This document shows positions 12,602 through 61,024 of a DNA stretch of 64,000 nt, in pieces. The notes beneath the pieces are model-generated. The model had not been told where the DNA came from and did no database searches. It saw only the letters and a program-made list of their open reading frames with translations. The stretch is from a virus. Its lineage: Duplodnaviria; Heunggongvirae; Uroviricota; Caudoviricetes. The stretch's first letter is position 1, and every line of letters starts with the position of its first letter. A program made the translations under genes and the position numbers. The stretch lies in the IMG/VR virus record IMGVR_UViG_3300034072_000647, one strand, 5' to 3'.

Positions 12602-12617
12602 AATAACCTTTCTAAAC

Positions 12618-13567: not shown

Positions 13568-13642
13568 TGGAGCGGGCGACGGGAATCGAACCCGCTCTAT
13601 GTACGGTTTGGAAGACCGACCGCATACCTTATGCTCGCCTGC
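13568..13642 (-). tRNA. tRNA-Gly(TCC)
   Basis: Anticodon GCGGT-CTTCCAA-ACCGT. T-arm AGCGGGTTCGATTCCCGT. CCA end. Confidence 0.6.
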
Positions 13643-13742
13643 ATTAAACTTGTCCCTCTTTAACTCGTTTCCTCGACTGATTGCTAGCATCAGTATCGCT
13701 TATCGAGCGAGCGGGGAGGCTCAGCAGCCGTAGCTGTAAAAC

Positions 13743-13818
13743 TGGTCTAGGAGACAGGACTTGAACCTGCAACCCCCTGCTCCCAAAGCAGGTGCGCTAC
13801 CACTTGCGCTACTCCCAG
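13743..13818 (-). tRNA. tRNA-Pro(TGG)
   Basis: D-arm GCGCAAGTGGTAGCGC. Anticodon CCTGC-TTTGGGA-GCAGG. T-arm GCAGGTTCAAGTCCTGT. CCA end. Confidence 0.75.
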
Positions 13819-14273
13819 ATGAAAAAACTGGACCAGTTCACCTATAACACCTCACTGAGTGATGCGTGCTCTGTGTTTCCTGCTGCACTGGTAAGCAGCT
13901 CCCCCGAGAAGGCGGCACATTAGGTTCTCATCCTAATGGCTGGGGCGGTCCGGATGCCTCGCCGCTCTACCGAGTAGTAGCACAGCTTTATTGGCAGAGC
14001 AGGATACCGGCTCAATTTAGTCCCGAATACAATCAGTCCGGGCAGATGAATAGCGCTTTTAGGACCATCACCCAATCTCAAGTGGCTAGAGTGCCGTCCA
14101 CTCTCTAGCCCGCTAGTCCCATGTCAACGGAATGACTAGCCCCGCATCTATTCGTAGAGCGACCGGATGAACCTAACGCATGTTCATCACAACGTTATCA
14201 AGAGTTGCAATAAGCTCGTAAACTTCTGCATTGGGGCGGGTCTTCAAGTCCCGACTCCTCTCTTGATAAACTC

Positions 14274-14302
14274 ATTATAATTCAAGTCAGTTTCAATGTC
14301 AA
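14274..14302 (-). promoter_or_regulatory. Consensus promoter TTGACA-N17-TATAAT driving an ORF-free 430-nt segment and downstream tRNAs
   Basis: Minus sense: TTGACAttgaaactgacttgaatTATAATgag. Confidence 0.55.
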
Positions 14303-14318
14303 GAACTATTTTTCTAAC

Positions 14319-14395
14319 TGGTAGACCGGGTGGGGTTCGAACCCACATACGCGCGGATTAAAAGTCCGCCGTTCCGCCTATTGAACTACCGGTCC
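14319..14395 (-). tRNA. tRNA-Lys(TTT) second copy
   Basis: Anticodon GCGGA-CTTTTAA-TCCGC. T-arm GTGGGTTCGAACCCCAC. CCA end. Confidence 0.7.
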
Positions 14396-14601
14396 ATGAT
14401 GACTGTTCAACCTCGGCTATAGCTGGAACTTAATCCAGCTTATTAATTACAATCTTACTGTATTCAGGATTTTTATAGTCGACCGCCATTTCAAATATCA
14501 CCTCCCCTAGTGAGTTGAATAGTTTGAAATTTGAAATTTTCAGCGGCTCAAACTCAGGGCTGAACCAGCTTTTCAACCTTTGCCACATAAAGCACCTAAA
14601 A

Positions 14602-14677
14602 TGGTAGACGAGGTGGGGTTCGAACCCACGACCTAAGGATTAAGAGTCCCGCGCTCTGCCAACTGAGCTACACGTCC
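14602..14677 (-). tRNA. tRNA-Lys(CTT)
   Basis: D-arm TAGCTCAGTTGGCAGAGCG. Anticodon loop CTCTTAA. T-arm GTGGGTTCGAACCCCAC. CCA end. Confidence 0.6.
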
Positions 14678-14862
14678 GTGAAATATTCCTTTTGAAGCTG
14701 CCAATAGGTCAGCTCATTTTCTGCGTCACAAAGTTCATAATGAACCGAATACCACTCTTCGGACTCTTCTTCATAAGTGCTAAGTTCATTAGACAACTCA
14801 TGAACAAGACGTTCAGCTAAGTCTTCATTAGCTTCAATCTCTTCCCAAGTATGATCGTTCAT
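14668..14862 (-). CDS. Small acidic protein (64 aa)
   Basis: ORF downstream of a consensus early promoter. Confidence 0.5.
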   Translation of the reverse strand: MNDHTWEEIEANEDLAERLVHELSNELSTYEEESEEWYSVHYELCDAENELTYWQLQKEYFTDV

Positions 14863-14914
14863 TGCTATCTCCGCTCTTGATGCCTCATTATAACAAAGGC
14901 AGTAGTGAAAGTCA
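14862..14914 (-). promoter_or_regulatory. Consensus early promoter plus conserved leader GAGGCATCAAGAGCGGAGA (representative of 20 or more copies)
   Basis: Minus sense: TTGACTttcactactgcctttgtTATAATgaggcatcaagagcggagatagcaATG. Confidence 0.65.
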
Positions 14915-14931
14915 AGAACTATTTCAGTAAT

Positions 14932-15009
14932 TGGTGAACCGACGAGGATTTGAACCTCGATCCCAAGGATTAAGAGTCCCGGTATTAGCCTATTATTAAG
15001 ATCGGTCCA
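14932..15009 (-). tRNA. tRNA with CTCTTAA anticodon loop (Lys-CTT-like)
   Basis: T-arm CGAGGTTCAAATCCTCG, CCA end, AT-rich D-arm. Confidence 0.5.
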
Positions 15010-15169
15010 TTATCTCTCGTTGCTGTTTAACCGCCACAACGATGGCGTGATCTGCTTTTAGATTACCTGTTCCGTGACAGGCACAGCAGATGCGAAATTT
15101 GTCTTTGAATTTCGAGCCACGCTTAGGCTTGAATAAGTTACCACTTCCGCCGCATTTGTGACACAACAT
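14996..15169 (-). CDS. Small zinc-ribbon protein (57 aa)
   Basis: Unlisted ORF MLCHKCGGSGN...CCACHGTGN with a GGAGAC SD and a promoter upstream. Confidence 0.45.
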   Translation of the reverse strand: MLCHKCGGSGNLFKPKRGSKFKDKFRICCACHGTGNLKADHAIVVAVKQQREIMDRS

Positions 15170-15280
15170 GGTAGTCTCCGCTCTTGATGCCCAATTATAA
15201 CAAGGTTGGCGGTCAAAGTCAAGAACTAAATTTTAAGAGGTTGAATCCGTTTTAATTACAGAGATTCATCCCCGAAAGCT

Positions 15281-15316
15281 ATAAAAATAGCCGAGGCTCC
15301 GTCGAGAACCTCGGCT
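15281..15316 (-). terminator. Intrinsic terminator (minus strand)
   Basis: AGCCGAGG...CCTCGGCT hairpin followed by ATTTTTAT in minus sense. Confidence 0.55.
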
Positions 15317-15324
15317 ATAATAGA

Positions 15325-15395
15325 TGGTAGCAGACCTAGGTAACGATCCTAGCTAGTCCAGGATATGAGCCCGAACCCCTCCCTGAGGGACTGCC
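15325..15395 (-). tRNA. tRNA-like (T-loop ATCGTTA; anticodon unresolved)
   Basis: Acceptor GGCAGTC/GTCTGCT with a CCA end. The internal fold is unclear. Confidence 0.4.
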
Positions 15396-15398
15396 ACA

Positions 15399-15644
15399 TT
15401 AGCCTTCAGACTTTTCGTAGGTCGCTCGATCTACGCAGATCATGCGATTCAACTTCTTGTCTTTAATTAGAAAAGGCTTATCACTATTACAGTTTGGTTC
15501 ACTGTTATACACAGTTTTATGATATTCACTATCTAGTATTACTGCATTAGGCCCTGCGGTAACAATTACGCGCGGGTCTGCATTGGCGGGACTGCCAGCA
15601 GCCAACCCTAGTAAAAACAGTCCTGTGAGTAACTTATTAAACAT
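15399..15644 (-). CDS. Small secreted protein (signal peptide)
   Basis: Starts MFNKLLTGLFLLGLAAGSPANA. Confidence 0.5.
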   Translation of the reverse strand: MFNKLLTGLFLLGLAAGSPANADPRVIVTAGPNAVILDSEYHKTVYNSEPNCNSDKPFLIKDKKLNRMICVDRATYEKSEG

Positions 15645-15659
15645 ATGATAATCCTTATA

Positions 15660-15730
15660 TGGAGCCGACATTGGGGTTCGAGCCCAACTAAACGACGTAC
15701 GAAGCCGTTGTCCTCGCCAGAGGTGTCGGC
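15660..15730 (-). tRNA. tRNA-Thr(CGT)
   Basis: Perfect acceptor GCCGACA/TGTCGGC. Anticodon ACGGC-TTCGTAC-GTCGT. T-arm TTGGGCTCGAACCCCAA. CCA end. Confidence 0.55.
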
Positions 15731-15736
15731 ATGAAA

Positions 15737-15829
15737 TGGAGGAAGGCTGGTGGTGTCGATCCCCAACCGTATCGCTACGAGTCCACTAGTTTTCAAGACT
15801 AGGCCTGGGGCCGCCCAGGATAACCTTCC
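15737..15829 (-). tRNA. tRNA-Ser(TGA)-like, long variable arm
   Basis: Acceptor GGAAGGT/GCCTTCC and a CCA end. Perfect anticodon hairpin CTAGT-CTTGAAA-ACTAG. Atypical T-arm with an ATCGACA loop. Confidence 0.5.
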
Positions 15830-15830
15830 G

Positions 15831-16034
15831 TTAAGCTGTAATTGCGATGACCTTATCGCGAACGCGGGCAGCGCGCTCAATCTCGCTAGCGCGGGCATCT
15901 ACACCAGCACTGAGCTTGACAATGGTTTCTTGGTCTTTCACGTTCTTGGCATTCTCAGCGTCGATATAAGTTTCGAGATCACGCTGAACCTTGCTGAAGG
16001 CTCCAAGAATATTATCAAGACTACGATTGAACAT
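15831..16034 (-). CDS. Small coiled-coil protein
   Basis: Started at an internal Met. Confidence 0.45.
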   Translation of the reverse strand: MFNRSLDNILGAFSKVQRDLETYIDAENAKNVKDQETIVKLSAGVDARASEIERAARVRDKVIAITA

Positions 16035-16060
16035 TAACTTACCTTTCCGTTGTTGAAAAA

Positions 16061-16137
16061 TGGATCCCCGCGTAGGACTCGAACCCACACTCACTAGGGC
16101 CAAAACCTAGCCGCCTTACCCGATAGCGCAACGGGGA
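16061..16137 (-). tRNA. tRNA-Gln(TTG)
   Basis: Anticodon CTAGG-TTTTGGC-CCTAG. T-arm GTGGGTTCGAGTCCTAC. CCA end. Confidence 0.65.
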
Positions 16138-16143
16138 ATGGTG

Positions 16144-16320
16144 TTAGCGACTTACGAAAGCACTAACACCTGCGATGCTCACCCCGAAAACGAGGAAAAT
16201 CAACGCTAGAATTAGGAATAGAATAATAGGCCAGAAGATGAGCAACAGCCAACTGGTGGCAATGACGCCTACGATCTTGAGAATAATCAAAACAAGCCAA
16301 ATAACGCCAACAATACTCAT
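16144..16320 (-). CDS. Small hydrophobic membrane protein (58 aa)
   Basis: Unlisted ORF MSIVGVIWLVLIIL... Confidence 0.4.
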   Translation of the reverse strand: MSIVGVIWLVLIILKIVGVIATSWLLLIFWPIILFLILALIFLVFGVSIAGVSAFVSR

Positions 16321-16338
16321 ATTTATCCCCCTATAAAC

Positions 16339-16413
16339 TGGTACTCACGCAGGGACTCGAACCCCGATAGGCCGCTAATCAGGCGGCAGCCTTAGCCATT
16401 AGACGACGTGAGC
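16339..16413 (-). tRNA. tRNA-Ile(GAT)-like second copy
   Basis: Acceptor GCTCACG/CGTGAGT. Anticodon GCCGC-CTGATTA-GCGGC. T-arm CGGGGTTCGAGTCCCTG. CCA end. Confidence 0.55.
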
Positions 16414-27901: not shown

Positions 27902-28429
27902 AGAGTATCTCCTAAATTCTGTGGCCCGTTGGGTAACAAGGTGGGCCAGACCCCGGTCACTTATGCGGCGAGACGAATCTCGTCGAAAGCGACAACGTCA
28001 TTGTCGTTTGCGTTTACTTTTTGTGGCCAGTTTAAGTTTAGCCAGACTATAGCCTAACGTGCTTTTTTCACGCCGAATCGATCTCAGTTCTGCCCCATCA
28101 ATATTCTAGTAAAACTTCTAAGCTACACTGACCCATGCCAACGTCCTTAGACCATAGGAATCTCTCGTTTTGCAATCGAGCGCTTTGTTTTTCTGTTACC
28201 GCAGAATGGTCATTCGTCTTGTCGGGAGAGTAGTGCCTCGGTAAAAGCAGGGAGTCCCTATACTAGAATAATGGTGGAGCAGGTGGGAGTCAAACCCACG
28301 TCTTCAGCTGCTATTAAGTCGCTTCAAGCGGCTATTTAGTTAGATAAGTATAATGTTACCACGCAGGGTAGAGAACAATATACTTATCAATCTCGTTATG
28401 TCTCAATATACTAAATTTGAGCCGTCAAG

Positions 28430-33921: not shown

Positions 33922-34801
33922 AAAATCTCCTATTGATGACTCATTATACGCCAACTAAACATGTGAGTCAACACGTAACTTTGGAAGTGCTTGAAATGCG
34001 GTGGTCGGCGCACAGCAAAATGGGCAGCAACCCGAAAGTTGCTGCCCATGCCCCGGCAAATTCGTATTACGGGTTGATCCGGCCTGAACTTCTGCGCTTC
34101 AGGTCTTTAGGTGGGTTAATTACTCCGCTTGTTACCTCCTCAGATATTTCCCGCGAGGACGGGCCGGTTCTCCGGTATAAGGCAGTTTTAACTTCTGCCA
34201 AAGTAGACACATTTTGAGGACCAAGGAGACTTATGACGTAATCTCAGCTATCTCAAGGCTGCACCATGCCTAAACTGAACGTGAGGTCGCTCACCACCTG
34301 CTCCTCACCAACCGCATAGCCGGCCTTGACCCGCGGTTCCCGTCTAATTGTCGTCTGCGGCCGCGAACCGGACCACAAAATCCTACTAAGCCGCTAAGCC
34401 TAGATTTACCGTTAGTCTCTTACATGAACTTGTTCGGCAATCCTTAATGGTACGTGAAGTGTCTCGACCACGCACATCCGCTTTGTTCTACACAACAAAG
34501 ACCGTCTCTCTTTAGGCTAGAGCCGCCTATCAGGGTTAACTACCCCAATATGAATCAGGAGTTGAGGTCGTCTTCGATTACACCGCGTACGTCGGAAACC
34601 TCTTTCATCGTCGGGTCGTTGATCTCCTGAACTGTTAAACCGAGCCGGAGGTTAGTCCGGGGAATTCTTTGACTGGTCACAGGCAATTTTTCCTAGGATG
34701 CCAGCAATCGCAGTAGTAACAAGTTTGCTCCACGATTTAGCCCAGCTTGTAGCGGAGATCAACCCGCGTCTGGATTAAGGAGCCTCTATCTTACTTTCCA
34801 C

Positions 34802-51262: not shown

Positions 51263-52104
51263 ATCTTACCAAAGCGGTAAGATCATTTTACAATAAGTCA
51301 AAGGTCCTCATCGTATTGCGTCTTCACTACGTGAAGACCAATGCAACGTGCTAAAGTGATTTAATTCACTATGGAATACTAAGGCAACTTGATGGGTTGC
51401 ATACCAATTTTCATCTATTTCATAAAATTGGAACGAACTCCGCTACCGGCCGCCCCACCTCCTAGCTTCGTGAACATGCTCTAGCTTATTATGACCTTTA
51501 AAGGGTTGTAGCAGGCTTTTATTTTGTCCTAAGCATACGCACTTCATTCCCATCACCCTAGATTGAGTAAATACTGTAGTGTGCGTTGGTCTGCTACACC
51601 CGTTGAAAGGCCCGTAGTCGGTTGCAACCTGCCACAGGTCCGCAGCAAATTTTTCTGAATCCGCTCGAATTTGCACTAAATTCGGCGCAACTTTTCCCGC
51701 AAACCACCCGTTGCATCCCGTTATCATCGAGCAAAGTGGCAGAAAATAAAAATATGTGGTTAAATCAGCACTTTGTCAAATAAATCTTGACTTTACGCAA
51801 AATAAGGCTTATAATCGTGGCGTTTACCGAATATGGTAGATTTTGCACTGATATTGAATTTGCACTGCCGCCGGCGCAGGTGAGTTTCGGCGCTAGAGAA
51901 ATTTTGGTCGAAATCTGTCTTTGGCACGAAGATGCCTAGCTGGGTAGCTTTAGCACTGGTCGAATTAGCACTTTATTGGCCACACGTAAAAATAGTTGTT
52001 GAACTACTACTGCCGCCGGCGCAATAGCAGCGCTATTGCGAATCATTAGCAATAAAAAATCCTTTGTTTTCAATGACTTAGCTGGAACCGACCGGCCGCC
52101 AAAT

Positions 52105-52190
52105 GTTACGTTATATCATATCCCTATGTGATGATATATCATATCCTGATGTTACGTTATATCATATCGTCATGTTATAACATATCCTAG
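52105..52190. repeat. Four direct repeats of TTATATCATATCC-like 13-mers at about 21-bp spacing
   Basis: ttatatcatatcc / atatatcatatcc / ttatatcatatcg / ttataacatatcc. Confidence 0.55.
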
Positions 52191-52259
52191 CCGGTCTCAG
52201 GGGGCACGATTATAGCAGCGTTCGCGGTCGTGTCAAGCCCAAGAAAAATAAATTTTTGC

Positions 52260-52320
52260 TTGACGCGGGCTTGCTAGTCTGCCAAAATCGGCGCAAGTTA
52301 TTGAGAATGATTCTCAGTAG
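52260..52320 (+). promoter_or_regulatory. Promoter-hairpin unit: TTGACG-N17-CAAAAT-CGGCGCAA plus palindrome TTGAGAATGATTCTCA
   Basis: Plus-strand sigma70 consensus with a GC-rich discriminator. No downstream plus-strand ORF. Confidence 0.5.
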
Positions 52321-52354
52321 AGGACAAAAGAAAAGGGCCTTGCGGCCCAAGTCT

Positions 52355-52600
52355 TTATTCGTTCTCCACCTCGACCCGTCCGATTAGGTCCGCGTTCCTA
52401 TAGTAAAACATTTTTTCGGTTCCGTCAACGTGCATTTGATGGACCCAGAAAATATCCTGCCGCCCCCCTTCCCAGCCGCAGCGAAGGGATGCCACCACCT
52501 TGCCGCAAGGGCCACGCCCTAGCTTAAATTCAGCAACGGTAAAAATATTGCCGCCGCCATTGTCATAGCGCGCTGGAACGCGAATTTTAACAATCGCCAT
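52355..52600 (-). CDS. Hypothetical protein (81 aa), GC-rich module
   Basis: ORF followed by the GGGCCGCAAGGCCC+T-run terminator at 52322-52350. Confidence 0.5.
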   Translation of the reverse strand: MAIVKIRVPARYDNGGGNIFTVAEFKLGRGPCGKVVASLRCGWEGGRQDIFWVHQMHVDGTEKMFYYRNADLIGRVEVENE

Positions 52601-52736
52601 TTTCCAATTCCCTAATTTCGCGCAAGAGCCTTATGCGCTCATTATCCTTAGCAGGGGTGAAAGGCTCGCGCAAGCATTTTTCCATTTTCTTGCGCAGTTT
52701 TTTCATCTTCGCATAATAGGTAGCGTTGCGTTCCAT
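52587..52736 (-). CDS. Hypothetical basic small protein (49 aa)
   Basis: Unlisted ORF MERNATYYAKMKK... that overlaps the start of the next gene. Confidence 0.35.
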   Translation of the reverse strand: MERNATYYAKMKKLRKKMEKCLREPFTPAKDNERIRLLREIRELENGDC

Positions 52737-52738
52737 AG

Positions 52739-52909
52739 CTAATCCTCCAGCCATGTTTTGCCGCTATTAAGGTCGCGACATTCCACCACCTTAACGCTAT
52801 TTCCAGCGTTAATCAAGTCATTAAATATCTTTTTTGCTTCCAGTTTGTCGGAGCCGCTCCAGTAGTCAAACCAGTCGAGGCCGTGAAGCGTGAAAATCTC
52901 ATAATACAT
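52739..52909 (-). CDS. Hypothetical protein
   Basis: Started at MYYEIF after an AAAGGA SD. Minus-strand TTGACA promoters lie upstream. Confidence 0.45.
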   Translation of the reverse strand: MYYEIFTLHGLDWFDYWSGSDKLEAKKIFNDLINAGNSVKVVECRDLNSGKTWLED

Positions 52910-53074
52910 ATTCAATCCTTTCCAGTGCCAGCTTAGGCGGAACAAACGCCCATGTCAACATGTAATTTATGAGAACAAACCGTGACCAAATTTTCGGCGC
53001 TCCCTATGGATAAACATAACGCCGTTTTGGCGGTCTGTCAAGCGAAAAATTTGCTTTTTTGCATAATTTTTCGG

Positions 53075-53105
53075 TTGACAGGTATGTCTATAAAAATGCT
53101 ATAAT
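53075..53105 (+). promoter_or_regulatory. Plus-strand promoter TTGACA ... TATAAT (19-bp spacer) divergent from minus-strand TTGACA promoters
   Basis: Drives a roughly 90-nt ORF-free transcript that ends at the 53161-53195 terminator. Confidence 0.45.
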
Positions 53106-53160
53106 CGCCCCGTTTCGGTCGCCCCATGATATGATATATCATCACATTGCTAGAACGTCA

Positions 53161-53195
53161 AAAAACCGGAGATGGCCATCTCCGGTTTTTCTATC
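53161..53195. terminator. Bidirectional intrinsic terminator
   Basis: AAAAACCGGAGATggccATCTCCGGTTTTT. Confidence 0.7.
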
Positions 53196-53522
53196 TAGCC
53201 GTATCGGTTGACTAGCAAAACGCCGTTTTAACTATTCAGCAGACGATACTGTTATAGGGTGACAATTCCGGTTTAATGAGAATTACGGAAAGCCCCTTGC
53301 TAAGTCTGACCTATCTCCATTTCAACCAAACCTAACTAATGATCGCTTTTCGTTTGTCACGCTTCCCGTTCGCCCCGTCTTTAATTGCTATTTTTCAAGC
53401 CGCGAGTGAAAGGGGAAATGGAAGCTATGACAAATCAGGCTAATCGAATCCAAACCTTATGCGATGATTATAGACGTTTTGGGCGGGCCGGTCAAGAATT
53501 ATTTTGACCGGCCCTAATCCCG

Positions 53523-53930
53523 TTAGTCGTCCGTGCCGGTCTTTTCCAGCGAAACGCGGCTGGCCGCTGCCTCAACATAGGCGGCGATAGCGACCAGTGC
53601 GGCCTTTGGCGACTTTTCCAGACCGTCCAGATTGCCCGTCACGATAGCGCCGATGCGTTCGACAAGGTCGGTTTTCTTGACGATGGGGCTGCCGTCCTTG
53701 GAGGTCGGTTCCTTGCCCGCGTAGGGCAGGCCCATCCGGCCAATCTTGGCGACCAGCGAACGATAGGAACGTTCCTTGCCGTCGCTATCGCGCATGTCGG
53801 GGCGTTCCGCCAGCGCCTTGGCGATTTCCAGATTGCCCTTTCCGTTGGGGCCGGCTTCGCAAGCCGCACGAATGATTGCTTCCTGAGCGGCGGTATAGTT
53901 GGTCGGCTTGGCGTTTGCGGTGTTGTCCAT
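53523..53930 (-). CDS. Hypothetical protein (135 aa)
   Basis: Started at MDNTANAK after an AAAGGA SD. Confidence 0.5.
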   Translation of the reverse strand: MDNTANAKPTNYTAAQEAIIRAACEAGPNGKGNLEIAKALAERPDMRDSDGKERSYRSLVAKIGRMGLPYAGKEPTSKDGSPIVKKTDLVERIGAIVTGNLDGLEKSPKAALVAIAAYVEAAASRVSLEKTGTDD

Positions 53931-54058
53931 TTTTAAGAGTCCTTTTGACTTTAGTGTTTCTCTATCAAGCTGCCTCATCGCCTCTTGATGTAATCCTTAT
54001 ATATCGGGCGAAGCATCCCGTCAACAAAAATCGACAAAAAATCTGAAAATCTTTTCTC

Positions 54059-54116
54059 TTGACATGGGCTGAAAAACCTGCTAAAATTTCGGCGCAAAAT
54101 CGGGATCGATTTTTGG
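54059..54116 (+). promoter_or_regulatory. Promoter-hairpin unit: TTGACA-N17-TAAAAT-ttCGGCGCAAAATCGggatCGATTTT
   Basis: Same module family. Confidence 0.5.
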
Positions 54117-54170
54117 CGGCACGATGATAAAGCAATCGCGAGAATTTGTCAAGCCCCTAAAATAAATAAA

Positions 54171-54200
54171 AGAAAAGGGGCTTTTCAGCCCCTTTTCCCT
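54171..54200. terminator. Bidirectional intrinsic terminator downstream of the A1-like gene
   Basis: AAAAGGGGCttttcAGCCCCTTTTC. Confidence 0.7.
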
Positions 54201-54205
54201 TGACA

Positions 54206-55870
54206 TTAGGCAAAAATGATTTGCCGCTGCCCGTTGGCATATGTGATAGTATCCGCGATTGCCCATGACGATGCGCCGATATTATATCCCATTTCCAGCG
54301 ATGCCGTTACGCCAGCCGTAAAGCAAGGATAGAAAATGCTAGGGCTGTGTGTGTGCCCGGTGTTCATCGGAACGCCAAGCGCCGCAAATTGTTTTGGCGA
54401 CCCGCGCGACCCGTTGACACCATTGTGCCCATGATTGCCCATTTCGACACCGGCGATAACTAGGCTTTCATCGGTTTCATGAAAATTGATTTGATCCGAA
54501 TAACCGCCTTCGCCAATTTCTTCATATGCATATTGCAGCATATTGAAATAATCGCCGTTTCCTTCCTCTTTATGGCGGTAAAGCGCCGTCATGCAATCCA
54601 GATAGACAAGTGCGTTTATCGGATCAATCTTAAAGTCAGCATTTTTCAGCCAAGTATTTATGGCCAAATCGTGGTTGCTTTCCACAATGTGAATCTGCCC
54701 GTCATGGCGGAAAGTCGTTTCCGCAATGGCGTCCAGAACGTCGGCCAGCTTTTGCAGGTCGCCGCGCACCGTATTGCCCTTGACGAATTGTTCATGCAGG
54801 AAAGTCGGATCCTTGATATTATGATGGTTCCGGCTGGAAAAATCCAAAACGTCATGCAGGATCACATTTGACGGCTTGAAATTCAGGATCATTTCGCAAG
54901 CGCGATCGAGATTGGCTTGCTCCATCTTTTCCGCATGAATGTCACCGAATTGCAAAGCCGCAACGTCGCCACGCGACAAGGGAACGAAAGCCGATGCGGA
55001 ATAGAAACCGTCCACATCATAGAAGCCGCTTTCGCCGTCCAGCTTGTGCAAATGCCGCATTTCGTTCGTGACAGTATCGACAAACACCGCGCCGATGCAA
55101 TGCGCCGCGCTTGCCTTAGCGCCGCGACCGCGAACGATATAGTTACGCTTGGTAACTGCGCCAGTGCCGACGATGGTTTTCGTTTTCGCGCCCTTCAGTG
55201 CCGCGCCTACGCGAAGCTCAATTTTGGACGTTGGCACGATAGCATGAACGCCGGGAGGCGTATTGCCATCGAATCCTTGCGTCGGCCATTGTGCCGTCAC
55301 GATGACATTTGCGTCGGCCAGAAAATGCGCGCCGTGCAAGTCGATTGTGCCGCGAACAATATAGCGCTTGATCGCCGGATCAAACCAGATATTTGCCTCG
55401 GGATCACCGCTGCCCATATCGTCAAGCGACACTTGACGAAACGCCTTTTTATTATAGACCGTCTGCGCGACCAGAATTTTCGCGCCGTGCATTTCCGCGT
55501 AGCGTTCCAGTGCCGCGAGAAAATCGCGGTCAACATCAGTGTTATTCTGCGCGACGGTCAGGATATAGCGGCCAGCCGGGAAAGCGTCAATATGGTCGCC
55601 AGCTTCCTGAGAAGCCGAAACCGGCATGGCTTCCAGCTTCGCCAGCTTCGCGGCGTCACGCGCCAGCTTCGCGGCTTCGCGCTTGCGCTTGGCGTCTGCC
55701 TTTTCCGCCTGATAGTTGACCAGCATCTGCCAATCATCGTCGGTAGGATCGCGATCAAATTCCGCCGCGAAGTCACCCGACAAGTCATCCCATGCCTTGC
55801 GCTGATTTTCCGGCGTTTTCTTGCGAAATACGCCAGCCGCGCTTGCAAATGCGATGATTTCTGTATTCAT
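54206..55870 (-). CDS. Large metallophosphoesterase, T5 A1-like (554 aa)
   Basis: Motifs GDIHA, HDVLDF, SNHD, GNHGHNG and GHTHSP are present. The start was placed at MNTEIIAF after an AAAGGAG SD. Size and context match the T5 pre-early protein A1 (by inference). Confidence 0.75.
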   Translation of the reverse strand: MNTEIIAFASAAGVFRKKTPENQRKAWDDLSGDFAAEFDRDPTDDDWQMLVNYQAEKADAKRKREAAKLARDAAKLAKLEAMPVSASQEAGDHIDAFPAGRYILTVAQNNTDVDRDFLAALERYAEMHGAKILVAQTVYNKKAFRQVSLDDMGSGDPEANIWFDPAIKRYIVRGTIDLHGAHFLADANVIVTAQWPTQGFDGNTPPGVHAIVPTSKIELRVGAALKGAKTKTIVGTGAVTKRNYIVRGRGAKASAAHCIGAVFVDTVTNEMRHLHKLDGESGFYDVDGFYSASAFVPLSRGDVAALQFGDIHAEKMEQANLDRACEMILNFKPSNVILHDVLDFSSRNHHNIKDPTFLHEQFVKGNTVRGDLQKLADVLDAIAETTFRHDGQIHIVESNHDLAINTWLKNADFKIDPINALVYLDCMTALYRHKEEGNGDYFNMLQYAYEEIGEGGYSDQINFHETDESLVIAGVEMGNHGHNGVNGSRGSPKQFAALGVPMNTGHTHSPSIFYPCFTAGVTASLEMGYNIGASSWAIADTITYANGQRQIIFA

Positions 55871-56002
55871 TTCATAGGCTCCTTTGCCACTAAGAATTTG
55901 CAAGTCCGTTTCCCGTCCTTGCCCTCCCCTTATACAGACGCCAGCGGATAACACAATAGGGAAAATTCGATTAGTGCGATTTTATTTAGAAAATTTTTTC
56001 GC

Positions 56003-56080
56003 TTGACAAGTCGCGGCGAACCTGCCAAAATCGGCGCAAAATTAAGGCTCTTGAGAATCATTCTCAAGAGCCTCATTTTT
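56003..56080 (+). promoter_or_regulatory. Promoter-hairpin-T-tract unit: TTGACA-N17-CAAAAT-CGGCGCAAAA plus GGCTCTTGAGAATCATTCTCAAGAGCC plus TCATTTTT
   Basis: Perfect 27-bp palindrome followed by a T-run. Genes on both sides are on the minus strand. Confidence 0.55.
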
Positions 56081-56084
56081 AGCT

Positions 56085-56255
56085 TAGCGGCGTTTTGACC
56101 GGCAAGTCATTGTCAAGCGCAAATTTCAGCCGCCCCAACGGCCCTAGCGCCTTTTCCGCGTTGGGTGGAACGTCCATATTTGACTTTAGCAACGTCCAGT
56201 AAATGAAAACGCAAAGCAATATGCCAAAAATAGACAGGATAGTTTCAGTCCACAT
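56085..56255 (-). CDS. Small membrane protein (56 aa)
   Basis: Unlisted ORF MWTETILSIFGILLCVFIYW... ATGTGGACTGA overlap with the upstream ORF. Confidence 0.4.
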
Positions 56256-56421
56256 TTGCTAAATCCTCCAACGCGATCATATCGCGCATTTGCAGTTGCA
56301 TTTCGCGCCAAAAAGCGCGGCGATACTCTAACGGCCGGTCGCGAATTTTCGTTACCATTTCCGCGAGGAATGAAGCTAAAGCGCCTTGCGCCCTAGCTTC
56401 ACCCTTTTCCGTTTCGTTCAT
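56245..56421 (-). CDS. Hypothetical small protein (58 aa)
   Basis: Unlisted ORF MNETEKGEARAQ... ATGA overlap with the stop of the HAD gene. Confidence 0.4.
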   Translation of the reverse strand: MNETEKGEARAQGALASFLAEMVTKIRDRPLEYRRAFWREMQLQMRDMIALEDLANVD

Positions 56422-56930
56422 GCGGCCAGCCGCAGGCGGGCATTTTCCCGCGTCGCGTCAATCATCATGACATCATCAGCCAGTGCCCGAATGACGCCTA
56501 GATTGTCATCGAACATGATCGCGCCCATTTCGCGGATAGTGTCGAAACCTTGCGAAAACGCATAGTCTGACAGTAGCTTGATTTTCAGCGCGCCGTCGCC
56601 CATCGTTTCGTGATCCGGGCCAGCCATCAGCCGATGCAGGCAAGCATGATGATGCAAACCATTATCGGCCAAGAATTGCGTATAAATTGCGCCCAAGTCA
56701 ACGCCATTCAGCGGCGAAAAATCACGCGCCGTGCAAATGACGATTGTATGACCGGCGGCAAACATAGTCCGCATGGAAGCCGCCAGCGGCAAGAGCGTAT
56801 CGCGAGCGATCATTTCCGGCGTGCTATTAGCAAACCAAAAATCGAGGTCGCAATGGCCATCTGCATTGTTACGGTAGCGATGCGACGTGTCGATGACAGT
56901 GCCATCCAAGTCAAAAATCACATAAGCCAT
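56418..56930 (-). CDS. HAD-superfamily phosphatase, T5 Dmp (5'-deoxyribonucleotidase)-like
   Basis: Contains HAD motif I (FDLDGTV). Its position next to the A1-like gene matches the T5 layout. Confidence 0.65.
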   Translation of the reverse strand: MAYVIFDLDGTVIDTSHRYRNNADGHCDLDFWFANSTPEMIARDTLLPLAASMRTMFAAGHTIVICTARDFSPLNGVDLGAIYTQFLADNGLHHHACLHRLMAGPDHETMGDGALKIKLLSDYAFSQGFDTIREMGAIMFDDNLGVIRALADDVMMIDATRENARLRLAA

Positions 56931-57047
56931 TTTGGTTTCCTTTTTTAAGCGATGTTTCCCTATCGCTGAAATTGTTATGCCTTAACCCAGCGATGATTGC
57001 AAGCCTAAAAATACGATTAAAAAGATTTATTTATTGAAAATTTTCGC

Positions 57048-57125
57048 TTGACAAATGCCTGCGCCGGCCCTAAAATCGGCGCAAATTGGGGTTATTGAGA
57101 ATCAATCTCAATAACCCCTTTGCTT
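57048..57125 (+). promoter_or_regulatory. Promoter-hairpin-T-tract unit: TTGACA-N17-TAAAAT-CGGCGCAAATT plus GGGGTTATTGAGAATCAATCTCAATAACCCC plus TTTGCTT
   Basis: Same module family. The hairpin core TTGAGAAT..ATTCTCAA is shared with the units at 52260 and 56003. Confidence 0.55.
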
Positions 57126-57387
57126 ATGTCGGAAATACAATCAAAGCCAGCAAAATGGATTGCAAGAAAATTCCGACGCTTTCCGAAACAATGTAAAGCA
57201 TCTGGCGATTGTATATGGAGCGCAGCAGGAACAAAAAGAGTCCAGCCCAGACCATAAGGACCATTGAAAGCGGCGGCAATTCATGGGACCAGCCCATAAT
57301 CACGCCGACCAGACTAGGGATTGCCGCGCCTTGAATAAGGCAAATTCCGACATATCCGCCAGCCTCAAATGCCTTTGCTTTGCTCAT
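57124..57387 (-). CDS. Small membrane protein (3 TM)
   Basis: ORF. Confidence 0.5.
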   Translation of the reverse strand: MSKAKAFEAGGYVGICLIQGAAIPSLVGVIMGWSHELPPLSMVLMVWAGLFLFLLRSIYNRQMLYIVSESVGIFLQSILLALIVFPT

Positions 57388-57494
57388 TATTCTGTCTCCA
57401 GACCGAAAGCTGAATTTTATATTGCCATTCCTTCCTTATCTTAGCAGCGGCCTTGCCGCTGTCAAGCGTTCCGATGAAAGGTGGATCGAATTTT

Positions 57495-57746
57495 CTAGTT
57501 GACGACATGCAAGTCAATCCCTTTAAGCCGCTTGACGCGAAGCAAGAGCGACTGAATTTCGGGAATGTCTGCGCCATACATGACGATTTCATCTTCCAGC
57601 AATTCATGCAAATAATCGACTTCGCTTTCCGTTAGCGTCAAGGTGAAAGTCGGAGGAACGTCGCCGTTATCATATCCGGCGGCCAGACGTTCCAGTTGAA
57701 TTAGGGCTTGTGTTACCATTTTTTCGGCCTTCCCTTTGCTTTCCAA
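57495..57746 (-). CDS. Hypothetical protein (83 aa)
   Basis: ORF. Confidence 0.45.
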   Translation of the reverse strand: MESKGKAEKMVTQALIQLERLAAGYDNGDVPPTFTLTLTESEVDYLHELLEDEIVMYGADIPEIQSLLLRVKRLKGIDLHVVN

Positions 57747-58458
57747 TATCCGTCGCTATATCCGCGCTTATATTCACTAGACCATTCCCGCGAGCCTGTC
57801 AAGTCGCCATTGATAAAGGCGGCCTTGCCGTCGCGAAGACCGGCGATGTATTGTGCAGCTTGCTTGTTCGTTTTCATGCCCCGATTATATCAAATTCGCC
57901 AACCCATGCAACAGAAAAAACGTGTCAAGTAAAAATAAAAATCTTTGCTCTTGACACATTTTTCGCTTGACGCCACCTTCACGCTAGTATATATGTAATG
58001 TATGGCTGGGAAATCGGCCAAAATTTTCGGCGCAAAATGGGGTCGTCATCCCATTATAGCAAGTCTGCATATGGCAGTCAAATAAAAAATGAGGCCGAAG
58101 CCTCATTCTTTGAGTTTTCTTTCTATGTCATATGGGTTGGCATAACCACAATAGCGAAGGCTCTTGAATGTCCTCTCCTCCGCCCTTGTCATCTTGCGAC
58201 CGAGAAGGCTTTCCACCTCTTTGCGAATGTTGATAATCATATCAGCGCGCCCCCTTCCAATCTGCCCGCATCTTGACACCGGCCGTGCCGCGCCATGCCG
58301 GAATACGGTCGATCATTTCCTGCCCACCCTTGCGGGTCGCGGCAGTTGCGAGAAGCGCGTTGCTCTTGATATCAACGATAACGAAGGGCGATGCATTCAT
58401 GTCCGTGTCTCCTCAGTTGGTAGGGCCATCTTAGCAGCCCTACCAATCGAGTCAACAT

Positions 58459-58722
58459 TTATTTTTCCATCGCCTCAAATTCTTCCGCGAAGGAATTGCC
58501 ACCAACGCGCAGCATGTCGTGCTTATAGGGATCGTATTCCTCGACCCAATAATCCGGCCCCTCGTCCTCGAGCCCACTTTCCTCCTCGGGCGCTTCCCAG
58601 CGTTCCCACGCATAGCAGTGGGCGTCGGTTTCCGCAGCCTCTAGGCTGTCATATATGCCCAGCGCATCGCAATAGTCCGTGCCGACATAGGGCGCCCAAT
58701 TACCCTGAATGATAACGCGCAT
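58459..58722 (-). CDS. Acidic hypothetical protein (87 aa)
   Basis: ORF with a TAATG overlap to the upstream ORF. Confidence 0.5.
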   Translation of the reverse strand: MRVIIQGNWAPYVGTDYCDALGIYDSLEAAETDAHCYAWERWEAPEEESGLEDEGPDYWVEEYDPYKHDMLRVGGNSFAEEFEAMEK

Positions 58723-58895
58723 TACAATTCTCCATTAAGGAACAATTCGACGGTTTCGCTGGCGACTTCCTCCGGCGAATCCCCCTGCTCATACATATCC
58801 CAATACATCTGATCGGGCAAGTCATCGGTGGTCAAGCAGCTAAGCTGTTCCGCGACAAGATTGTCCACCTTTGCCTTCCAAGCCTCGAACGACAT
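58722..58895 (-). CDS. Hypothetical acidic small protein (57 aa)
   Basis: Unlisted ORF MSFEAWKAKVDN... after an AGGAGA SD. Confidence 0.45.
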   Translation of the reverse strand: MSFEAWKAKVDNLVAEQLSCLTTDDLPDQMYWDMYEQGDSPEEVASETVELFLNGEL

Positions 58896-58963
58896 TGCCT
58901 TATCTCCTGAAATTGAGCCTTATAATAAAACGAAAAAAGCACCTTGTCAACAAATCTTTTCAG

Positions 58964-59036
58964 TTGACATTGAATTGAATCTGTGCTAAAATCGGCGCCA
59001 ATTTGAGCGCATTGAAAATGCGCTCATTGAATATTG
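58964..59036 (+). promoter_or_regulatory. Promoter-hairpin unit: TTGACA-N17-TAAAAT-CGGCGCCAATT plus TGAGCGCATTgaaaAATGCGCTCA
   Basis: Same module family. Confidence 0.5.
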
Positions 59037-59050: not shown

Positions 59051-59191
59051 TCAATTTTCGTCCTGTTCCCGGTCTGTTCTCGTTCCGTTCCCGTTCCGTT
59101 CCGCCAGCGCCGCCTGCCCGGATATGAAATACCATATCACCGCTCCGTATACGATTGCGATGACACCGATGGATGCGATAACGTCCGACAT
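59051..59191 (-). CDS. Small membrane protein with NG-rich repeat tail (46 aa)
   Basis: Unlisted ORF MSDVIASIGVIAIVYGAVIWYF...ERNGNGTRT. It overlaps a GTTCC tandem repeat. Confidence 0.35.
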   Translation of the reverse strand: MSDVIASIGVIAIVYGAVIWYFISGQAALAERNGNGTRTDREQDEN

Positions 59192-59295
59192 GCTGCTAAG
59201 TCCTTGATATTGCTGGATTTCGGCGCCTCCTGCGAGGCGTTCTCATTTAGCCTAAAGCTAATGCTATCCCGCCGCGAGGCGGGATAGTGAGAGCC

Positions 59296-60003: not shown

Positions 60004-60909
60004 TTAAATCAAATCCTCGATACAATTACATTCAGATATGAAACATTCCGTATTGCCATTGGGCAACCCCGGATTTACCCTACTTTCCCTCAATTTCCAC
60101 AAAATTTCCCGCTCTGTTTCAATTGCCTCATCTAAATCTGGAAACTTCACGAAGTCTAATAACTTATACGCTGGGAACCCCCTAAAACGACTTTCTGTGT
60201 CTCTCTGAGTTATACCTATTTTTTTAAATTTACCAAAATCTACTAAATATAAATAAGTTTCTTTATTCTTCTTAAGAACACTATGATTTATATCTAATCC
60301 GGCTAACTCCAAGGCTTTTACCCAACTACCAAAACGCCCCACGACCGCCATAGAGCTAGGTTCTTCATCCTCTCGGAAGTAATCTAATCTTTCTTTGACT
60401 ACATATTTTCTAACCAAATCCAGCAGATACTCATCTGTATATTCTTTCTTAACTCCCAAACCTCTAGTACGTACCACGTTAGTTATAGCAGCTTCACTAC
60501 GCCCTAGAACCTCTGCAATGTACTTGTACTGATGACCCTTCTCTATTAGTTCTTTGACTTTACTAATATCAGCCTCGATCCAAGAACCTTCTCTATGCTT
60601 TTTACCTCTACGAACCTTTTCGAGCCCCTCCAGCTTAGACAATCTTCTAGATATAGAAGCCTCCGTACGGCCCAATTGTTTAGCTATAGCTTTATAAGTT
60701 TCTTTCGATTCATATAACTCTATAAGTAATTCATCCTCATAGTCTTTCCAGGATTCTCTAATTACGTTAGATTCTAGTACCCCGTATTGTATTAATTTAG
60801 ATATTCTACATTGTATCGCCTTTGTAGTTCTTCCCTCTATTTCCGGAAATTCATCCCTCTCTCTGGCGTTAATTATAATTTGATCTTCTTCTTTTGTCCA
60901 TCGTTTCAT
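60004..60909 (-). CDS. Myb/SANT-like repeat protein with C-terminal T5orf172 (GIY-YIG superfamily) domain
   Basis: The N-terminal half has three W..EED..I / HTH-like repeats. The C-terminal region LYLVDFGKFKKIGITQRDTESRF has a GIY...YIG...R arrangement like the T5orf172 domain. The AT content is atypical, which suggests a homing-endonuclease-like mobile gene. Confidence 0.65.
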   Translation of the reverse strand: MKRWTKEEDQIIINARERDEFPEIEGRTTKAIQCRISKLIQYGVLESNVIRESWKDYEDELLIELYESKETYKAIAKQLGRTEASISRRLSKLEGLEKVRRGKKHREGSWIEADISKVKELIEKGHQYKYIAEVLGRSEAAITNVVRTRGLGVKKEYTDEYLLDLVRKYVVKERLDYFREDEEPSSMAVVGRFGSWVKALELAGLDINHSVLKKNKETYLYLVDFGKFKKIGITQRDTESRFRGFPAYKLLDFVKFPDLDEAIETEREILWKLRESRVNPGLPNGNTECFISECNCIEDLI

Positions 60910-61024
60910 GTTTAGAGTATAGATTAATTTTGATCAAATGTCAAGAATTTTTATAACATTTGAAAATTTACCTTGACTCTCTTTAGGTGAATTTGATATA
61001 CTACTCAAAATAAGGAGAATTTTA

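Follow-up and report, generated by a model that had tools for sequence, protein, structure and literature searches.

Within the 64,000-nt stretch of DNA analysed here (the window), which derives from a T5-like phage represented solely in metagenomes, the gaps between the pre-early genes hold a composite cassette built from an antisense host-sigma70-type promoter, an oriented GGCGC site and a hairpin. Judging from the sequence evidence, we consider that these cassettes may be antisense promoters through which pre-early transcription is controlled or insulated, each joined to a distinct cis-site, probably a nick site (probability about 0.5).

Antisense promoter units in the pre-early region

The pre-early (first-step-transfer) region spans 51.6-59.3 kb of the window and contains homologues of A1 and Dmp: ORF 54206-55873(-) (555 aa) is ~41% identical to T5 A1 across ~81-85% of its length, and ORF 56418-56930(-) is the counterpart of a gene called Phage_T5_dNMPase in relatives. 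All pre-early genes lie on the minus strand, and the plus-strand ORFs were revealed by cross-genome tblastn to be shadows of them. A first-pass annotation had described nine plus-strand promoter-hairpin-T-tract units that point against these genes and serve no plus-strand gene; in line with this, their near-consensus elements are conserved in relatives, and we regard the units as very probably real host-sigma70-type promoters aimed against the genes, and as likely to be functional. As there are no plus-strand genes, only short RNAs would be expected from them.

The pattern TTGACA-N16-18-YAAAAT occurs four times in the window (54059, 56003, 57048 and 58964; 0.07 expected) and AAAAT-N0-3-YGGCGC six times (52284 to 58998; 0.56 expected), in every case on the plus strand. 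Five of the nine proposed units (52260, 54059, 56003, 57048 and 58964) have the described TTGACA-17-YAAAAT-plus-box layout, with the deviations that the -35 at 52260 reads TTGACG and that the box at 54059 lies 2 nt past the -10. The first of them (52260..52348, -35 at 52260-65, -10 CAAAAT at 52283-88, core CGGCGCA at 52289-95) has orthologues in two related loci (L008 and L011), and continues into the palindrome TTATTGAGAATGATTCTCAG (52298-52317) and a separate GC hairpin (52335-48) situated directly past the stop of the minus-strand ORF 52355-52600. The second (54059..54116, -35 TTGACA at 54059-64, -10 TAAAAT at 54082-87, then TT and core CGGCGCA at 54090-96) ends in a weak A/U hairpin with a T run (54096-54114) and opposes a minus-strand promoter (54152-54124), with the A1 terminator (54168-54201) farther on. 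In the third (56003..56081, -35 at 56003-08, -10 CAAAAT at 56026-31, core at 56032-38) a 13-bp hairpin that includes TTGAGAATCATTCTCAA (56045-73) and a T run (56076-80) bring the unit to within 6 nt of the stop of the minus-strand ORF 56079-56255, while the hairpin of the fourth (57048..57127, -35 at 57048-53, -10 TAAAAT at 57071-76, core at 57077-83, hairpin at 57088-57118) includes the 15-mer TGAGAATCAATCTCA. The unit at 58964..59027 (-35 at 58964-69, -10 TAAAAT at 58987-92, core CGGCGCC at 58993-99, hairpin at 59005-27) stands back to back with a minus-strand promoter (58950-58922).

The remaining four proposed units depart from this layout. At 57960 promoter and box are both present, but arranged differently (class ii, 57967..58107): the box CAAAATTTT-CGGCGCA (58019-34, at ~+17 to +33) follows ~25 nt past the -10 of a separate promoter (TTGACG at 57967-72, 17-nt spacer, TATATG at 57990-95) and is succeeded by a hairpin (58039-56), an opposing minus-strand promoter (58081-58053) and a terminator (58088-58107), a layout also found in two relatives (L001 and L013). 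The proposed cassette at 51786 is an ordinary TTGACT-17-TATAAT promoter devoid of a box, that at 53075 combines a 19-nt spacer with a strong terminator of its own (53161-53190) and likewise lacks the box, and the 'partial unit' at 51690 retains a core but lacks a good promoter.

The common palindrome core reported earlier is indeed present at 52298-52316, 56048-56070 and 57092-57114, with a fourth variant at 52033-52049, and GMGAATSAWT has six matches (1.5 expected), all inside 52038-57106. Four short units have significant hairpins (z -3.7 at 52260, -5.7 at 56003, -6.6 at 57048 and -4.1 at 58964; the 56003 hairpin reaches -7.0 on the minus strand); the signal is weaker for the long transcript from 57960 (z -2.8), and at 54059 (z -1.1) it falls short of significance. 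As a feature the hairpins are conserved. Their median energy is -19.1 kcal/mol after box promoters versus -9.4 kcal/mol after sense promoters (p = 2e-6), and their sequences vary both between units and between genomes, in the latter case with compensatory changes. The T-runs claimed for the units are good only at 56003, 57048 and the weak 54059 hairpin, and are not kept in relatives (on average 2.2 T among the 8 nt past the stem); since T-tracts are weak on both strands, the efficiency of termination at these hairpins is uncertain.

Conservation and strand rule

Thirteen related metagenomic loci carry the same cassette, so the elements are conserved in related phages. Across these loci 52 boxes run against A1/dmp and in the direction of TerS/TerL, versus two palindromic mirror reads. 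Promoter information in six genomes peaks at CTTGACA, TGC, the -10 and the box, and falls to zero in the spacer: the -35, the 17-nt spacing, the TGC extended -10, the -10 and an upstream A/T-rich tract are conserved, the spacer sequence is not. In the same genomes, YAAAAT plus box characterizes 24 of 42 antisense-strand promoters versus none of 32 sense promoters, and a convergent sense promoter accompanies 17 of the 53 boxes counted in seven genomes. Since the core is invariant and the strand rule strict across ~14 genomes, these patterns indicate selection on function, beyond homology for recombination. Gene content varies among relatives at the cassette points (e.g. an additional kinase-like gene in L011, other small ORFs elsewhere).

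The GGCGC core and the T5 nick site

The interpretation of CGGCGCAA as a 'stringent-type discriminator' finds no support in the form given, as the distance of the core from the -10 varies (0, 2 or 3 nt, or 21-27 nt where the promoter is a separate one) and the core is also found away from promoters, namely in the leader of sense promoters without an antisense -35 and beside non-promoter repeats. The units share with rrnB P1 a GC-rich stretch from the -10 to the start (probably at A), and differ from it by features of stable complexes (near-consensus -35, 17-nt spacer, TGn extended -10), by the variable offset and, in zero-offset units (where the core abuts the -10), by a G in place of C at -5. 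A G at -5 stabilises open complexes through discriminator contacts, the opposite of rrnB P1.

Six further plus-strand cores have no antisense promoter (51690, 51872, 51888, 52017, 52995 and 59221), all except 51690 being absent from the first-pass annotation. The core CCAAATTTT-CGGCGCT (52995..53001; class iii, no antisense -35) corresponds to ~+5 to +25 of a minus-strand promoter (TTGACA-17-TATGTT, 53041-53013), on its template strand, and keeps this position in six genomes; GGATTT-CGGCGCC (59221..59227) lies in the 5' leader region of the minus-strand ORF 59051-59191. Since there are cores that adjoin no -10 element, a discriminator function does not account for them all, and we hold the core to be most likely a cis-site of its own.

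In sequence the core agrees with R|GCGC, the nick core of T5: the major-nick consensus is R|GCGCRGG (PMC3517423), T5 nicks lie on the minus strand (PMC10644984), and the three annotated major nicks conform to both. In T5 the nicks share a strand with the terminase gene, and the boxes hold the same relation here, reproducing the one-strand exclusivity of T5/BF23 interruptions on the strand coding for terminase. Motifs common to T5 and the window comprise the 15-mer TGAGAATCAATCTCA (identical, beside the T5 boundary nick), AATGAGAATCATT and TCGRATTTGCAC; on account of these common repeat motifs and of the terminase orientation, the predicted nick core sits on the strand equivalent to that nicked in T5. 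Moreover, the boundary-type modules at 51665..52056(+) consist of a 25-nt repeat ending in CGGCGCA (51665-89, 51854-78 and 51999-52023), with an extra CGGCGCT core at 51888 and, after the last repeat, a hairpin CGCAATAGC-AGC-GCTATTGCG and then GCGAATCATTAGCAA. By its element order (TCGRATTTGCAC repeat, core, hairpin, GAGAATCA-type palindromes), shared with the T5 boundary nick, this stretch is the putative counterpart of the T5 layout TCGGATTTGCAC-AAAA|GCGC-hairpin...GAGAATCA. Boundary modules of the forms TTTGCACT-N6-8-GGCGCW and AAAATAGTTGTTGAnnTACTACT-N6-8-GGCGCW recur in the window and in relatives, their linkers being mostly not A/T-rich.

Unlike the T5 nicks, which are dispersed, flanked 3' by RGG and not fused to promoters (two of the three major ones lie in coding DNA, without an A-run or promoter), the boxes are clustered in the pre-early region only, are followed by MAA and are mostly fused to a promoter -10. 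The T5 similarity consists of short motifs, 11-mers common with T5 not being enriched overall (17 vs ~8 expected), and outside the region GGCGC is no more strand-asymmetric (7 vs 29) than other 5-mers. As for a candidate nickase, relatives encode, next to their portal and terminase genes, a homologue of the HNH protein T5p149 (41% identity, E 6e-33), labelled PF26848 Phage_T5_Nicking_endo. Its candidacy derives from this Pfam family name; our Pfam search did not return PF26848, and the T5 record lists another gene, sciB, as nickase candidate. That the core is nicked is a tentative proposal, to which we give slightly less than even odds.

Alternative readings and proposed role

The YAAAAT hexamer accompanies the core throughout the pre-early gaps, classes ii and iii included, a pattern no less expected of an element bound by RNA polymerase/sigma than of a nickase site. 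The box could hence be a class-specific -10/discriminator/initial-transcribed element of a temporal promoter class that switches off the pre-early genes without any nick, read by RNA polymerase with A1-like or gpT5.026-like proteins, or through supercoiling, ppGpp or DksA. T5 offers a precedent, one that serves the main reading too, in its discriminator-defined promoter classes and RNA-polymerase-binding pre-early proteins (PMC7472727; bioRxiv 10.64898/2026.04.02.716235), and A1 dampens pre-early promoters (bioRxiv 10.64898/2026.04.02.716235). The T5 temporal classes (early class ATATT; Klimuk et al. 2020) are likewise strong sigma70 promoters with similar -35/-10 elements and a class-specific sequence right past the -10, and the box is likewise restricted to one promoter set; that set, however, is antisense, gene-less, GC-rich and confined to the first-step-transfer region, and its core recurs away from promoters. 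We consider this reading rather unlikely, as it leaves unexplained the cores without antisense promoter, those on non-A/T linkers by boundary repeats and the 0-3 nt offset variation (which alters the bases at -6 to -1), and would require the likeness to the T5 nick layout to be coincidental.

An improbable alternative is a design like lambda PR', in which a strong constitutive promoter, a sigma70-dependent promoter-proximal pause (-10-like hexamer plus GC) and a terminator would await late antiterminator read-through that silences the pre-early genes in antisense and feeds the co-oriented terminase/late module. PR'-tR' (6S RNA) similarly combines a strong promoter with an almost immediate hairpin, units are co-oriented with TerS/TerL at every locus, class ii carries a -10-like-plus-GGCGC element in the early transcribed region (~+8 to +35), and several class i units have a second CAAAAT at ~-1 to +5. 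Yet this hexamer lacks conservation (with CCAATT and CAAATA as variants), the analysis identified neither a Q-like nor any other antiterminator, TerS is served by a promoter of its own (60973-61002), the poor T-tracts possibly leave little termination to overcome, and class iii sites are at odds with such a design. Promoters that oppose each other at a distance of a few tens of bp are also known from lambda oop and coliphage 186 pR-pL interference; all these systems differ from ours in its many copies, poor T-tracts and promoterless cores. It is still more improbable that the short RNAs themselves are functional, as oop-like antisense to pre-early 3' hairpins or as decoy hairpins for a host factor: a strong promoter with a stable hairpin would yield them abundantly (25-120 nt), and T5 host-takeover functions reside in the pre-early region (bioRxiv 10.64898/2026.04.02.716235), but the hairpin sequences are not conserved across genomes or units, predicted 5' ends shift with the box offset, comparison with Rfam gave no match and promoterless cores would give no RNA of this kind. 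We give the least credence to a mainly evolutionary role as recombination points that shuffle small pre-early genes, with incidental antisense orientation, after the manner of the PeSLs of T4-type phages (PMC4122927). Both are repeated intergenic cassettes (~45 bp here) of an early plastic region, with an A/T-rich tract, near-consensus sigma70 promoter and stem-loop, and border small variable ORFs where the gene content of relatives differs. In PeSLs, however, the stem-loop precedes a gene-co-oriented promoter that ends in a Shine-Dalgarno sequence and ATG, whereas the cassette promoter is antisense and gene-less, leads directly into the stem-loop and bears the GGCGC core, and the invariant core and strict strand rule across ~14 genomes point to selection on function.

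Returning to the antisense promoter with a fused cis-site, the cassette promoter is co-directional with the terminase/late module and its hairpin directly follows the point at which the pre-early gene upstream reaches its stop codon. The GGCGC core would most likely be this clade's version of the strand-specific T5 nick site (R|GCGC), with the T5-type HNH protein cutting the non-template strand at ~-5/-4 of the antisense promoter; the nicked strand would also be the template of the pre-early genes, right past their 3' hairpins. The cassettes may serve as RNA polymerase sinks, insulators or binding sites, as had been suggested. RNA polymerase would load at the cassette promoters facing oncoming sense transcription, in about one third of cases against a sense promoter that starts no more than ~20-40 bp away, and the RNA products (~25-120 nt) would be by-products. 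Given this opposition, the cassettes would act through occlusion, roadblock or collision, and may thereby keep one pre-early transcription unit apart from the next and damp pre-early expression or shut it off.

Antisense promoter cassettes in a T5-like pre-early region

By its gene layout, in which a homologue of T5 protein A1 (54206-55873, minus strand; ~41% identity to many T5-group phages) and a HAD phosphatase (56418-56930, minus strand; its counterpart in relatives is labelled Phage_T5_dNMPase) are followed by TerS- and TerL-like genes (plus strand, from 61025), the phage is T5-like, and the 51.6-59.3 kb segment of the window is its pre-early, first-step-transfer (FST) region. No close cultured or deposited relative was recovered at the DNA level by megablast, by blastn or with the N-terminal part of A1, and the contigs closest to it are metagenomic, some of them recovered from human skin samples, with A1 identities of 97% down to ~50%; the Caulobacter and Rhizobium A1 matches were rejected as close relatives, being phiCbK-type or small podophages. 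Cross-genome tblastn identified the minus-strand ORFs as the real genes and the plus-strand ORFs as their shadows, and plus-strand genes (including a 165-aa call in the relative L008 and ORF 58164-58712) were discarded on that account. A 135-aa ORF (53523-53930) is kept downstream of A1 in relatives; its candidacy as 'A2' was dropped, since it has no BLASTP match to T5 A2. The gap separating the pre-early region from TerS encodes a 301-aa Myb/HTH protein with an HNH repeat (60004-60909, minus strand); the otherwise near-identical relative L009 has another Myb protein, of 230 aa, in its place (6568-7260), so that the gene is probably mobile and homing-endonuclease-like. The window as a whole (G+C 45.5%) carries an unusual cargo of ~29-30 tRNA genes and a permuted (two-piece type) tmRNA, all on the minus strand (1322-16413 and 27961-28335), which hints at the host lineage.

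On the plus strand, antisense to the pre-early genes, this region holds units in which a promoter is joined to a CGGCGC-type (YGGCGC) box, or core, and a hairpin. The pattern TTGACA-N16-18-YAAAAT was found four times (0.07 expected) and AAAAT-N0-3-YGGCGC six times (0.56 expected; 52284-58998), in both cases on the plus strand only; six further plus-strand cores have no antisense promoter. The first-pass annotation had proposed nine plus-strand promoter-hairpin-T-tract mini-units: five (named by their -35 start 52260, 54059, 56003, 57048 and 58964) fit this description, the unit called 57960 (promoter at 57967) is laid out differently, and those at 51786 and 53075 are promoter-like but lack the box. 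The palindrome core described as common to several units was confirmed, with a fourth copy at 52033-52049. The TTGACA-17-YAAAAT hexamers agree with the sigma70 pattern (TTGACA and a TATAAT-like -10 separated by 17 +/- 1 nt) at 10-11 of 12 positions in four units (9 of 12 at 52260) and are accompanied by conserved auxiliary elements, i.e. a consensus tgcTAAAAT (TGn extended -10) and an A/T-rich, UP-like ttttcgCTTGACA. The same geometry recurs in 24 box promoters from six genomes, whose position profiles show conservation of the A/T-rich tract, CTTGACA, TGC, the -10 and the box, the spacer being unconserved; YAAAAT followed by the box occurs in 24 of 42 antisense-strand promoters versus none of 32 sense promoters. 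Functional sigma70 promoters that form a class of their own would be expected to show such profiles, and we put the probability that the antisense promoters are functional at roughly 0.75.

Three units (54095-54100, 56037-56042 and 58033-58038, plus strand) carry a -10-like direct repeat around the core (CAAAAT-CGGCG-CAAAAT, 11 bp apart), the second hexamer of which falls at ~ -1 to +5, a position taken up in lambdoid late promoters by sigma-dependent pause elements; this second hexamer is not kept in all units. The boxless site at 53075-53190 (plus strand; TTGACA, 19-nt spacer, TATAAT) is promoter-like, resembles the plus-strand promoter at 51787-51815 in its -10 and the next 10 nt, and leads, ~55 nt further on, into a perfect bidirectional terminator of 15 bp (53161-53190); its predicted RNA of ~80 nt would hold an inverted copy of a 23-nt repeat located at 52126-52148.

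A search of related phages, which the first-pass annotation had called for, recovered the cassette in all the relatives examined that were close enough (L008-L010, L011, L013, L014, L016 and L001, all related metagenomic loci), and exact motif scans added seven further loci (L004-L006, L019-L022). Among the latter, T5-like TerS and TerL homologues are present in L004, L006 and L019-L021 (most of which also have a Dmp homologue), L022 has Dmp-, p135- and p87-like genes, and L005 a p135-like gene only. Counted over 13 loci, 52 boxes are oriented against A1 and dmp, on the coding strand of TerS/TerL, and two lie on the opposite strand, both being mirror readings of a palindromic GGCGCC box. In L002 and L003 (A1 ~50% and ~47% identical), which have the same A1/terminase layout, the regular expression used found no boxes; L002 retains one TGGCGCT followed by ...AATCATTCGC near 12717. 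On these grounds a boundary-type site may be ancestral, the promoter-fused copies representing a later expansion within the clade. On the sense (A1) strand of L016, the promoter TTGACAcgacttgcgcaaactgcTATAATcggcgcg, which faces a box unit at L016 4775, is the only one of 32 sense promoters with a CGGCGC-type sequence right after the -10.

The hairpins start 2-11 nt past the core and vary in sequence between genomes and units. Across genomes, their median stability is -19.1 kcal/mol after box promoters versus -9.4 kcal/mol after sense promoters (p = 2e-6); in the window the folds are significant in four short units (z -3.7 to -6.6), weaker for the long transcript of unit 57960, and weak and not significant at 54059. 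Of the features of an intrinsic terminator, a stable, GC-containing hairpin is present in four units, and good plus-strand U-tracts are found at 56003 and 57048; T-runs are not conserved on either strand across genomes (mean across genomes only 2.2/8 T on the plus strand, 2.8/8 on the sense strand). Since the window hairpins, or a second hairpin just beyond, lie within a few nt of the stop codon of the upstream minus-strand gene, they are best read as stem-loops closing the 3' ends of the pre-early transcripts, or as partial terminators of these, with the antisense promoters directed into them.

The YGGCGC core and the nick sites of T5

The core occurs in three settings. In the most frequent (~30 cases) it lies 0, 2 or 3 nt from the -10; in ~8 cases (e.g. 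window 57967-58034, L001 and L013) a complete TTGACA-17-TAYAAT or TATAYG promoter is placed 21-27 nt upstream, so that the box itself would be transcribed; in the third, at a position conserved in six genomes (window 52995), it has no antisense -35 at all and falls at ~+5 to +25 relative to the start of a sense promoter, on the template strand of the latter. A sense promoter faces the box in 17 of 53 cases, with its -10 7-32 nt off (bar one boundary site). Furthermore, a 25-nt repeat ending in GGCGCA is present in three copies near 51.6-52.1 kb, and the modules TTTGCACT-N6-8-GGCGCW and AAAATAGTTGTTGAnnTACTACT-N6-8-GGCGCW, whose linkers are mostly not A/T-rich, recur over the window and its relatives. 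Taken together, the variable offsets, promoterless cores and non-A/T linkers leave YGGCGC as the invariant part; it behaves as an oriented cis-site, and is very probably a site separate from the promoter. The box does not keep one distance from the start site across these settings and is therefore no shared part of the predicted RNAs, for which reason an RNA-level role for it was rejected.

Such an oriented site recalls the single-strand interruptions of T5, which lie in the minus strand (PMC10644984). The three major interruptions annotated in the T5 record (AY692264, minus strand) read, with a slash marking the nick, CACAAAA/GCGCAGGG, AGGAGA/GCGCAGGG and GGTGG/GCGCGGGC, and match the published consensus R/GCGCRGG; additional nick determinants must exist, and minor nicks tolerate substitutions (PMC3517423). 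The R/GCGC part has its counterpart in YG-GCGC, invariant in all boxes; the RGG 3' flank is missing, the boxes carrying A/C/T followed by AA or AT. The confinement to one strand (52 vs 2, the latter palindromic mirror reads) is likewise shared, terminase gene and nicks lying on one strand in T5 and terminase gene and boxes on one strand here, which provides an independent check of orientation. The orientation of the boundary motifs agrees with the box strand being equivalent to the nicked strand of T5. The T5 nick 9748/9749, annotated in AY692264 at the inner end of the terminal repeat, reads along the nicked strand as TCGGATTTGCAC-AAAA/GCGC, hairpin, ...GCGAATGATAATGAGAATCAATCTCATT; in the window, the same order is followed on the plus strand by TCGAATTTGCAC-TAAATTCG-GCGCA at 51665 and by G-GCGC, hairpin, GCGAATCATTAGCAA at 52017-52049. 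The 15-mer TGAGAATCAATCTCA of the unit at 57048 is identical to the T5 palindrome (~0.02 chance matches estimated between the two regions), and AATGAGAATCATT, of which T5 has three copies, is found again in L008, in the orthologue of the unit at 52260. The likeness consists of short specific motifs only: an overall DNA homology to the iss region of T5 was rejected, since shared 11-mers are not enriched (17 vs ~8 expected).

Several other candidate lines of evidence were discarded: the strand asymmetry of GGCGC outside the region (7 vs 29), since other 5-mers are equally asymmetric through coding bias; contig ends as physical termini or nicks, since the end of L009 is what remains of a Nextera adapter and that of L010 falls inside tandem repeats; and the DnaA boxes stressed by Davison for T5, of which four one-mismatch matches fall in 51-60 kb out of 18 window-wide (no enrichment). 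As to a possible enzyme, relatives with 97% and 67% A1 identity encode, between portal and terminase (a position beyond the end of the window), a 129-aa HNH-type protein 41% identical to T5p149 (E 6e-33), located in L008 at 514-903 on the minus strand; the collection labels it PF26848 Phage_T5_Nicking_endo, and this family name makes it a candidate nickase. The T5 record names another gene, sciB, as nickase candidate, and its homology to this HNH protein was rejected for want of similarity. On sequence grounds the core is a candidate nick site, and that it is in fact nicked we consider a little short of an even chance. On the assumption that it is, the only plus-strand YGGCGCA sites outside the pre-early region (two copies of TGGTCGGCGCACAGCAAAA at 1192-1218 and 33999-34025, together with 20713 and 63926) would be candidates for dispersed nicks.

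Further repeats were noted in this part of the window. About six copies of (GA)ATTTGCACT / TTAGCACT, also found in L005, L013 and L014, occupy 51650-51980 and resemble the reverse complement of the nine-copy T5 DRD repeat GTGCAAATCCGAC by the terminal-repeat boundary. Three to four tandem 23-bp repeats (ATGTTACGTTATATCATATCC...) follow at 52093-52192, inside which the L010 contig breaks; with an inverted 23-nt copy 1 kb away (53125-53147, 96% complementary) they bracket three small genes, recalling the right-arm pre-early inverted repeats of T5. The adjoining ~330 nt (53190-53520), ending at the 53161-53190 terminator, have no convincing ORF and might yield a ~300-nt RNA (fold z-score only -2.0, no Rfam match) from a minus-strand promoter (TTGACC-17-TATAAT, 53495-53467) that lies within the 135-aa gene's terminator hairpin.

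Possible roles of the cassettes

Very strong antisense promoters that either back onto the sense promoters or face them, just behind 3' hairpins, would load RNA polymerase against pre-early transcription and act through occlusion, roadblock and collision. Such loading fits what is known of T5, whose promoter classes differ in their discriminators (PMC7472727) and whose pre-early proteins, A1 included, bind RNA polymerase and damp the pre-early promoters (bioRxiv 10.64898/2026.04.02.716235). Were the core nicked, the break would come at ~-5/-4 of the antisense promoter, in its non-template strand; for the pre-early genes this same strand serves as template. A bolder version, which we hold to be unlikely, is that of nick-gated promoters: a packaging-associated HNH nickase would cut the GC-rich discriminator of each antisense promoter, so that injected, relaxed linear FST DNA would be transcribed unlike ligated or replicated DNA. 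Under the same proposal the cut strand would at once be the pre-early template, interrupted just behind the 3' hairpins and in some sense-promoter leaders.

Four other explanations were weighed against these. The box may simply define a discriminator class. As to the stringent type suggested in the first-pass annotation, CGGCGC does follow the -10 directly in four window units, as in the GC-rich discriminators of stringent promoters, but sequence proxies (17-nt spacer, consensus -35, TGn, G at -5) speak against the short-lived open complex of such promoters, and the 0-3 nt variation in the -10-to-box offset counts against it as well. The cassettes might alternatively encode functional small RNAs; the predicted antisense RNAs measure ~25-120 nt, and with the Rfam 15 covariance models no match in the region reached the gathering score, the only ones at E < 1 being two of chance level. 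A pause and antitermination system resembling that of lambda PR' would be directed toward co-oriented late genes, and the strand shared by boxes and terminase genes would suit it. The units might, lastly, be shuffling cassettes like PeSLs. The PeSLs of T4-type phages have the cassette idea in common with the box units, and differ in orientation and core: a PeSL is a stem-loop upstream of a co-oriented early promoter, followed by a Shine-Dalgarno sequence and start codon (PMC4122927), whereas the box promoters are antisense and gene-less.

The cassette combines elements of known kinds (sigma70 promoter classes, T5 nick/iss elements and promoter/stem-loop cassettes), and the literature searched contained no account of a nick-like core joined to antisense promoters. 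Davison's account of T5 FST DNA describes conserved repeats and, by a term search of its text, mentions neither nicks nor promoters, and no antisense promoter is annotated in AY692264 between the genes dmp, A1 and A2. As the parts are short and near the E. coli consensus, they can be synthesized and tested in vitro without phage culture. The T5 family is a classic model for promoter strength, and the questions posed for its members include the purpose of the nicks, the shut-off of the pre-early genes and the role of the conserved non-coding FST repeats; this clade puts candidate answers to all three in one 60-90-bp cassette, some copies of which carry the palindrome flanking the T5 boundary nick. 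Were the core nicked, this would be the first case found of nick sites mapping systematically to a defined promoter position; were it not, the units would still represent a new, conserved antisense promoter class with a fixed downstream element. Should the nick-gated view be true, the cassettes would constitute a one-shot timer marking incoming virion DNA, giving T5-type nicks a role in pre-early control.
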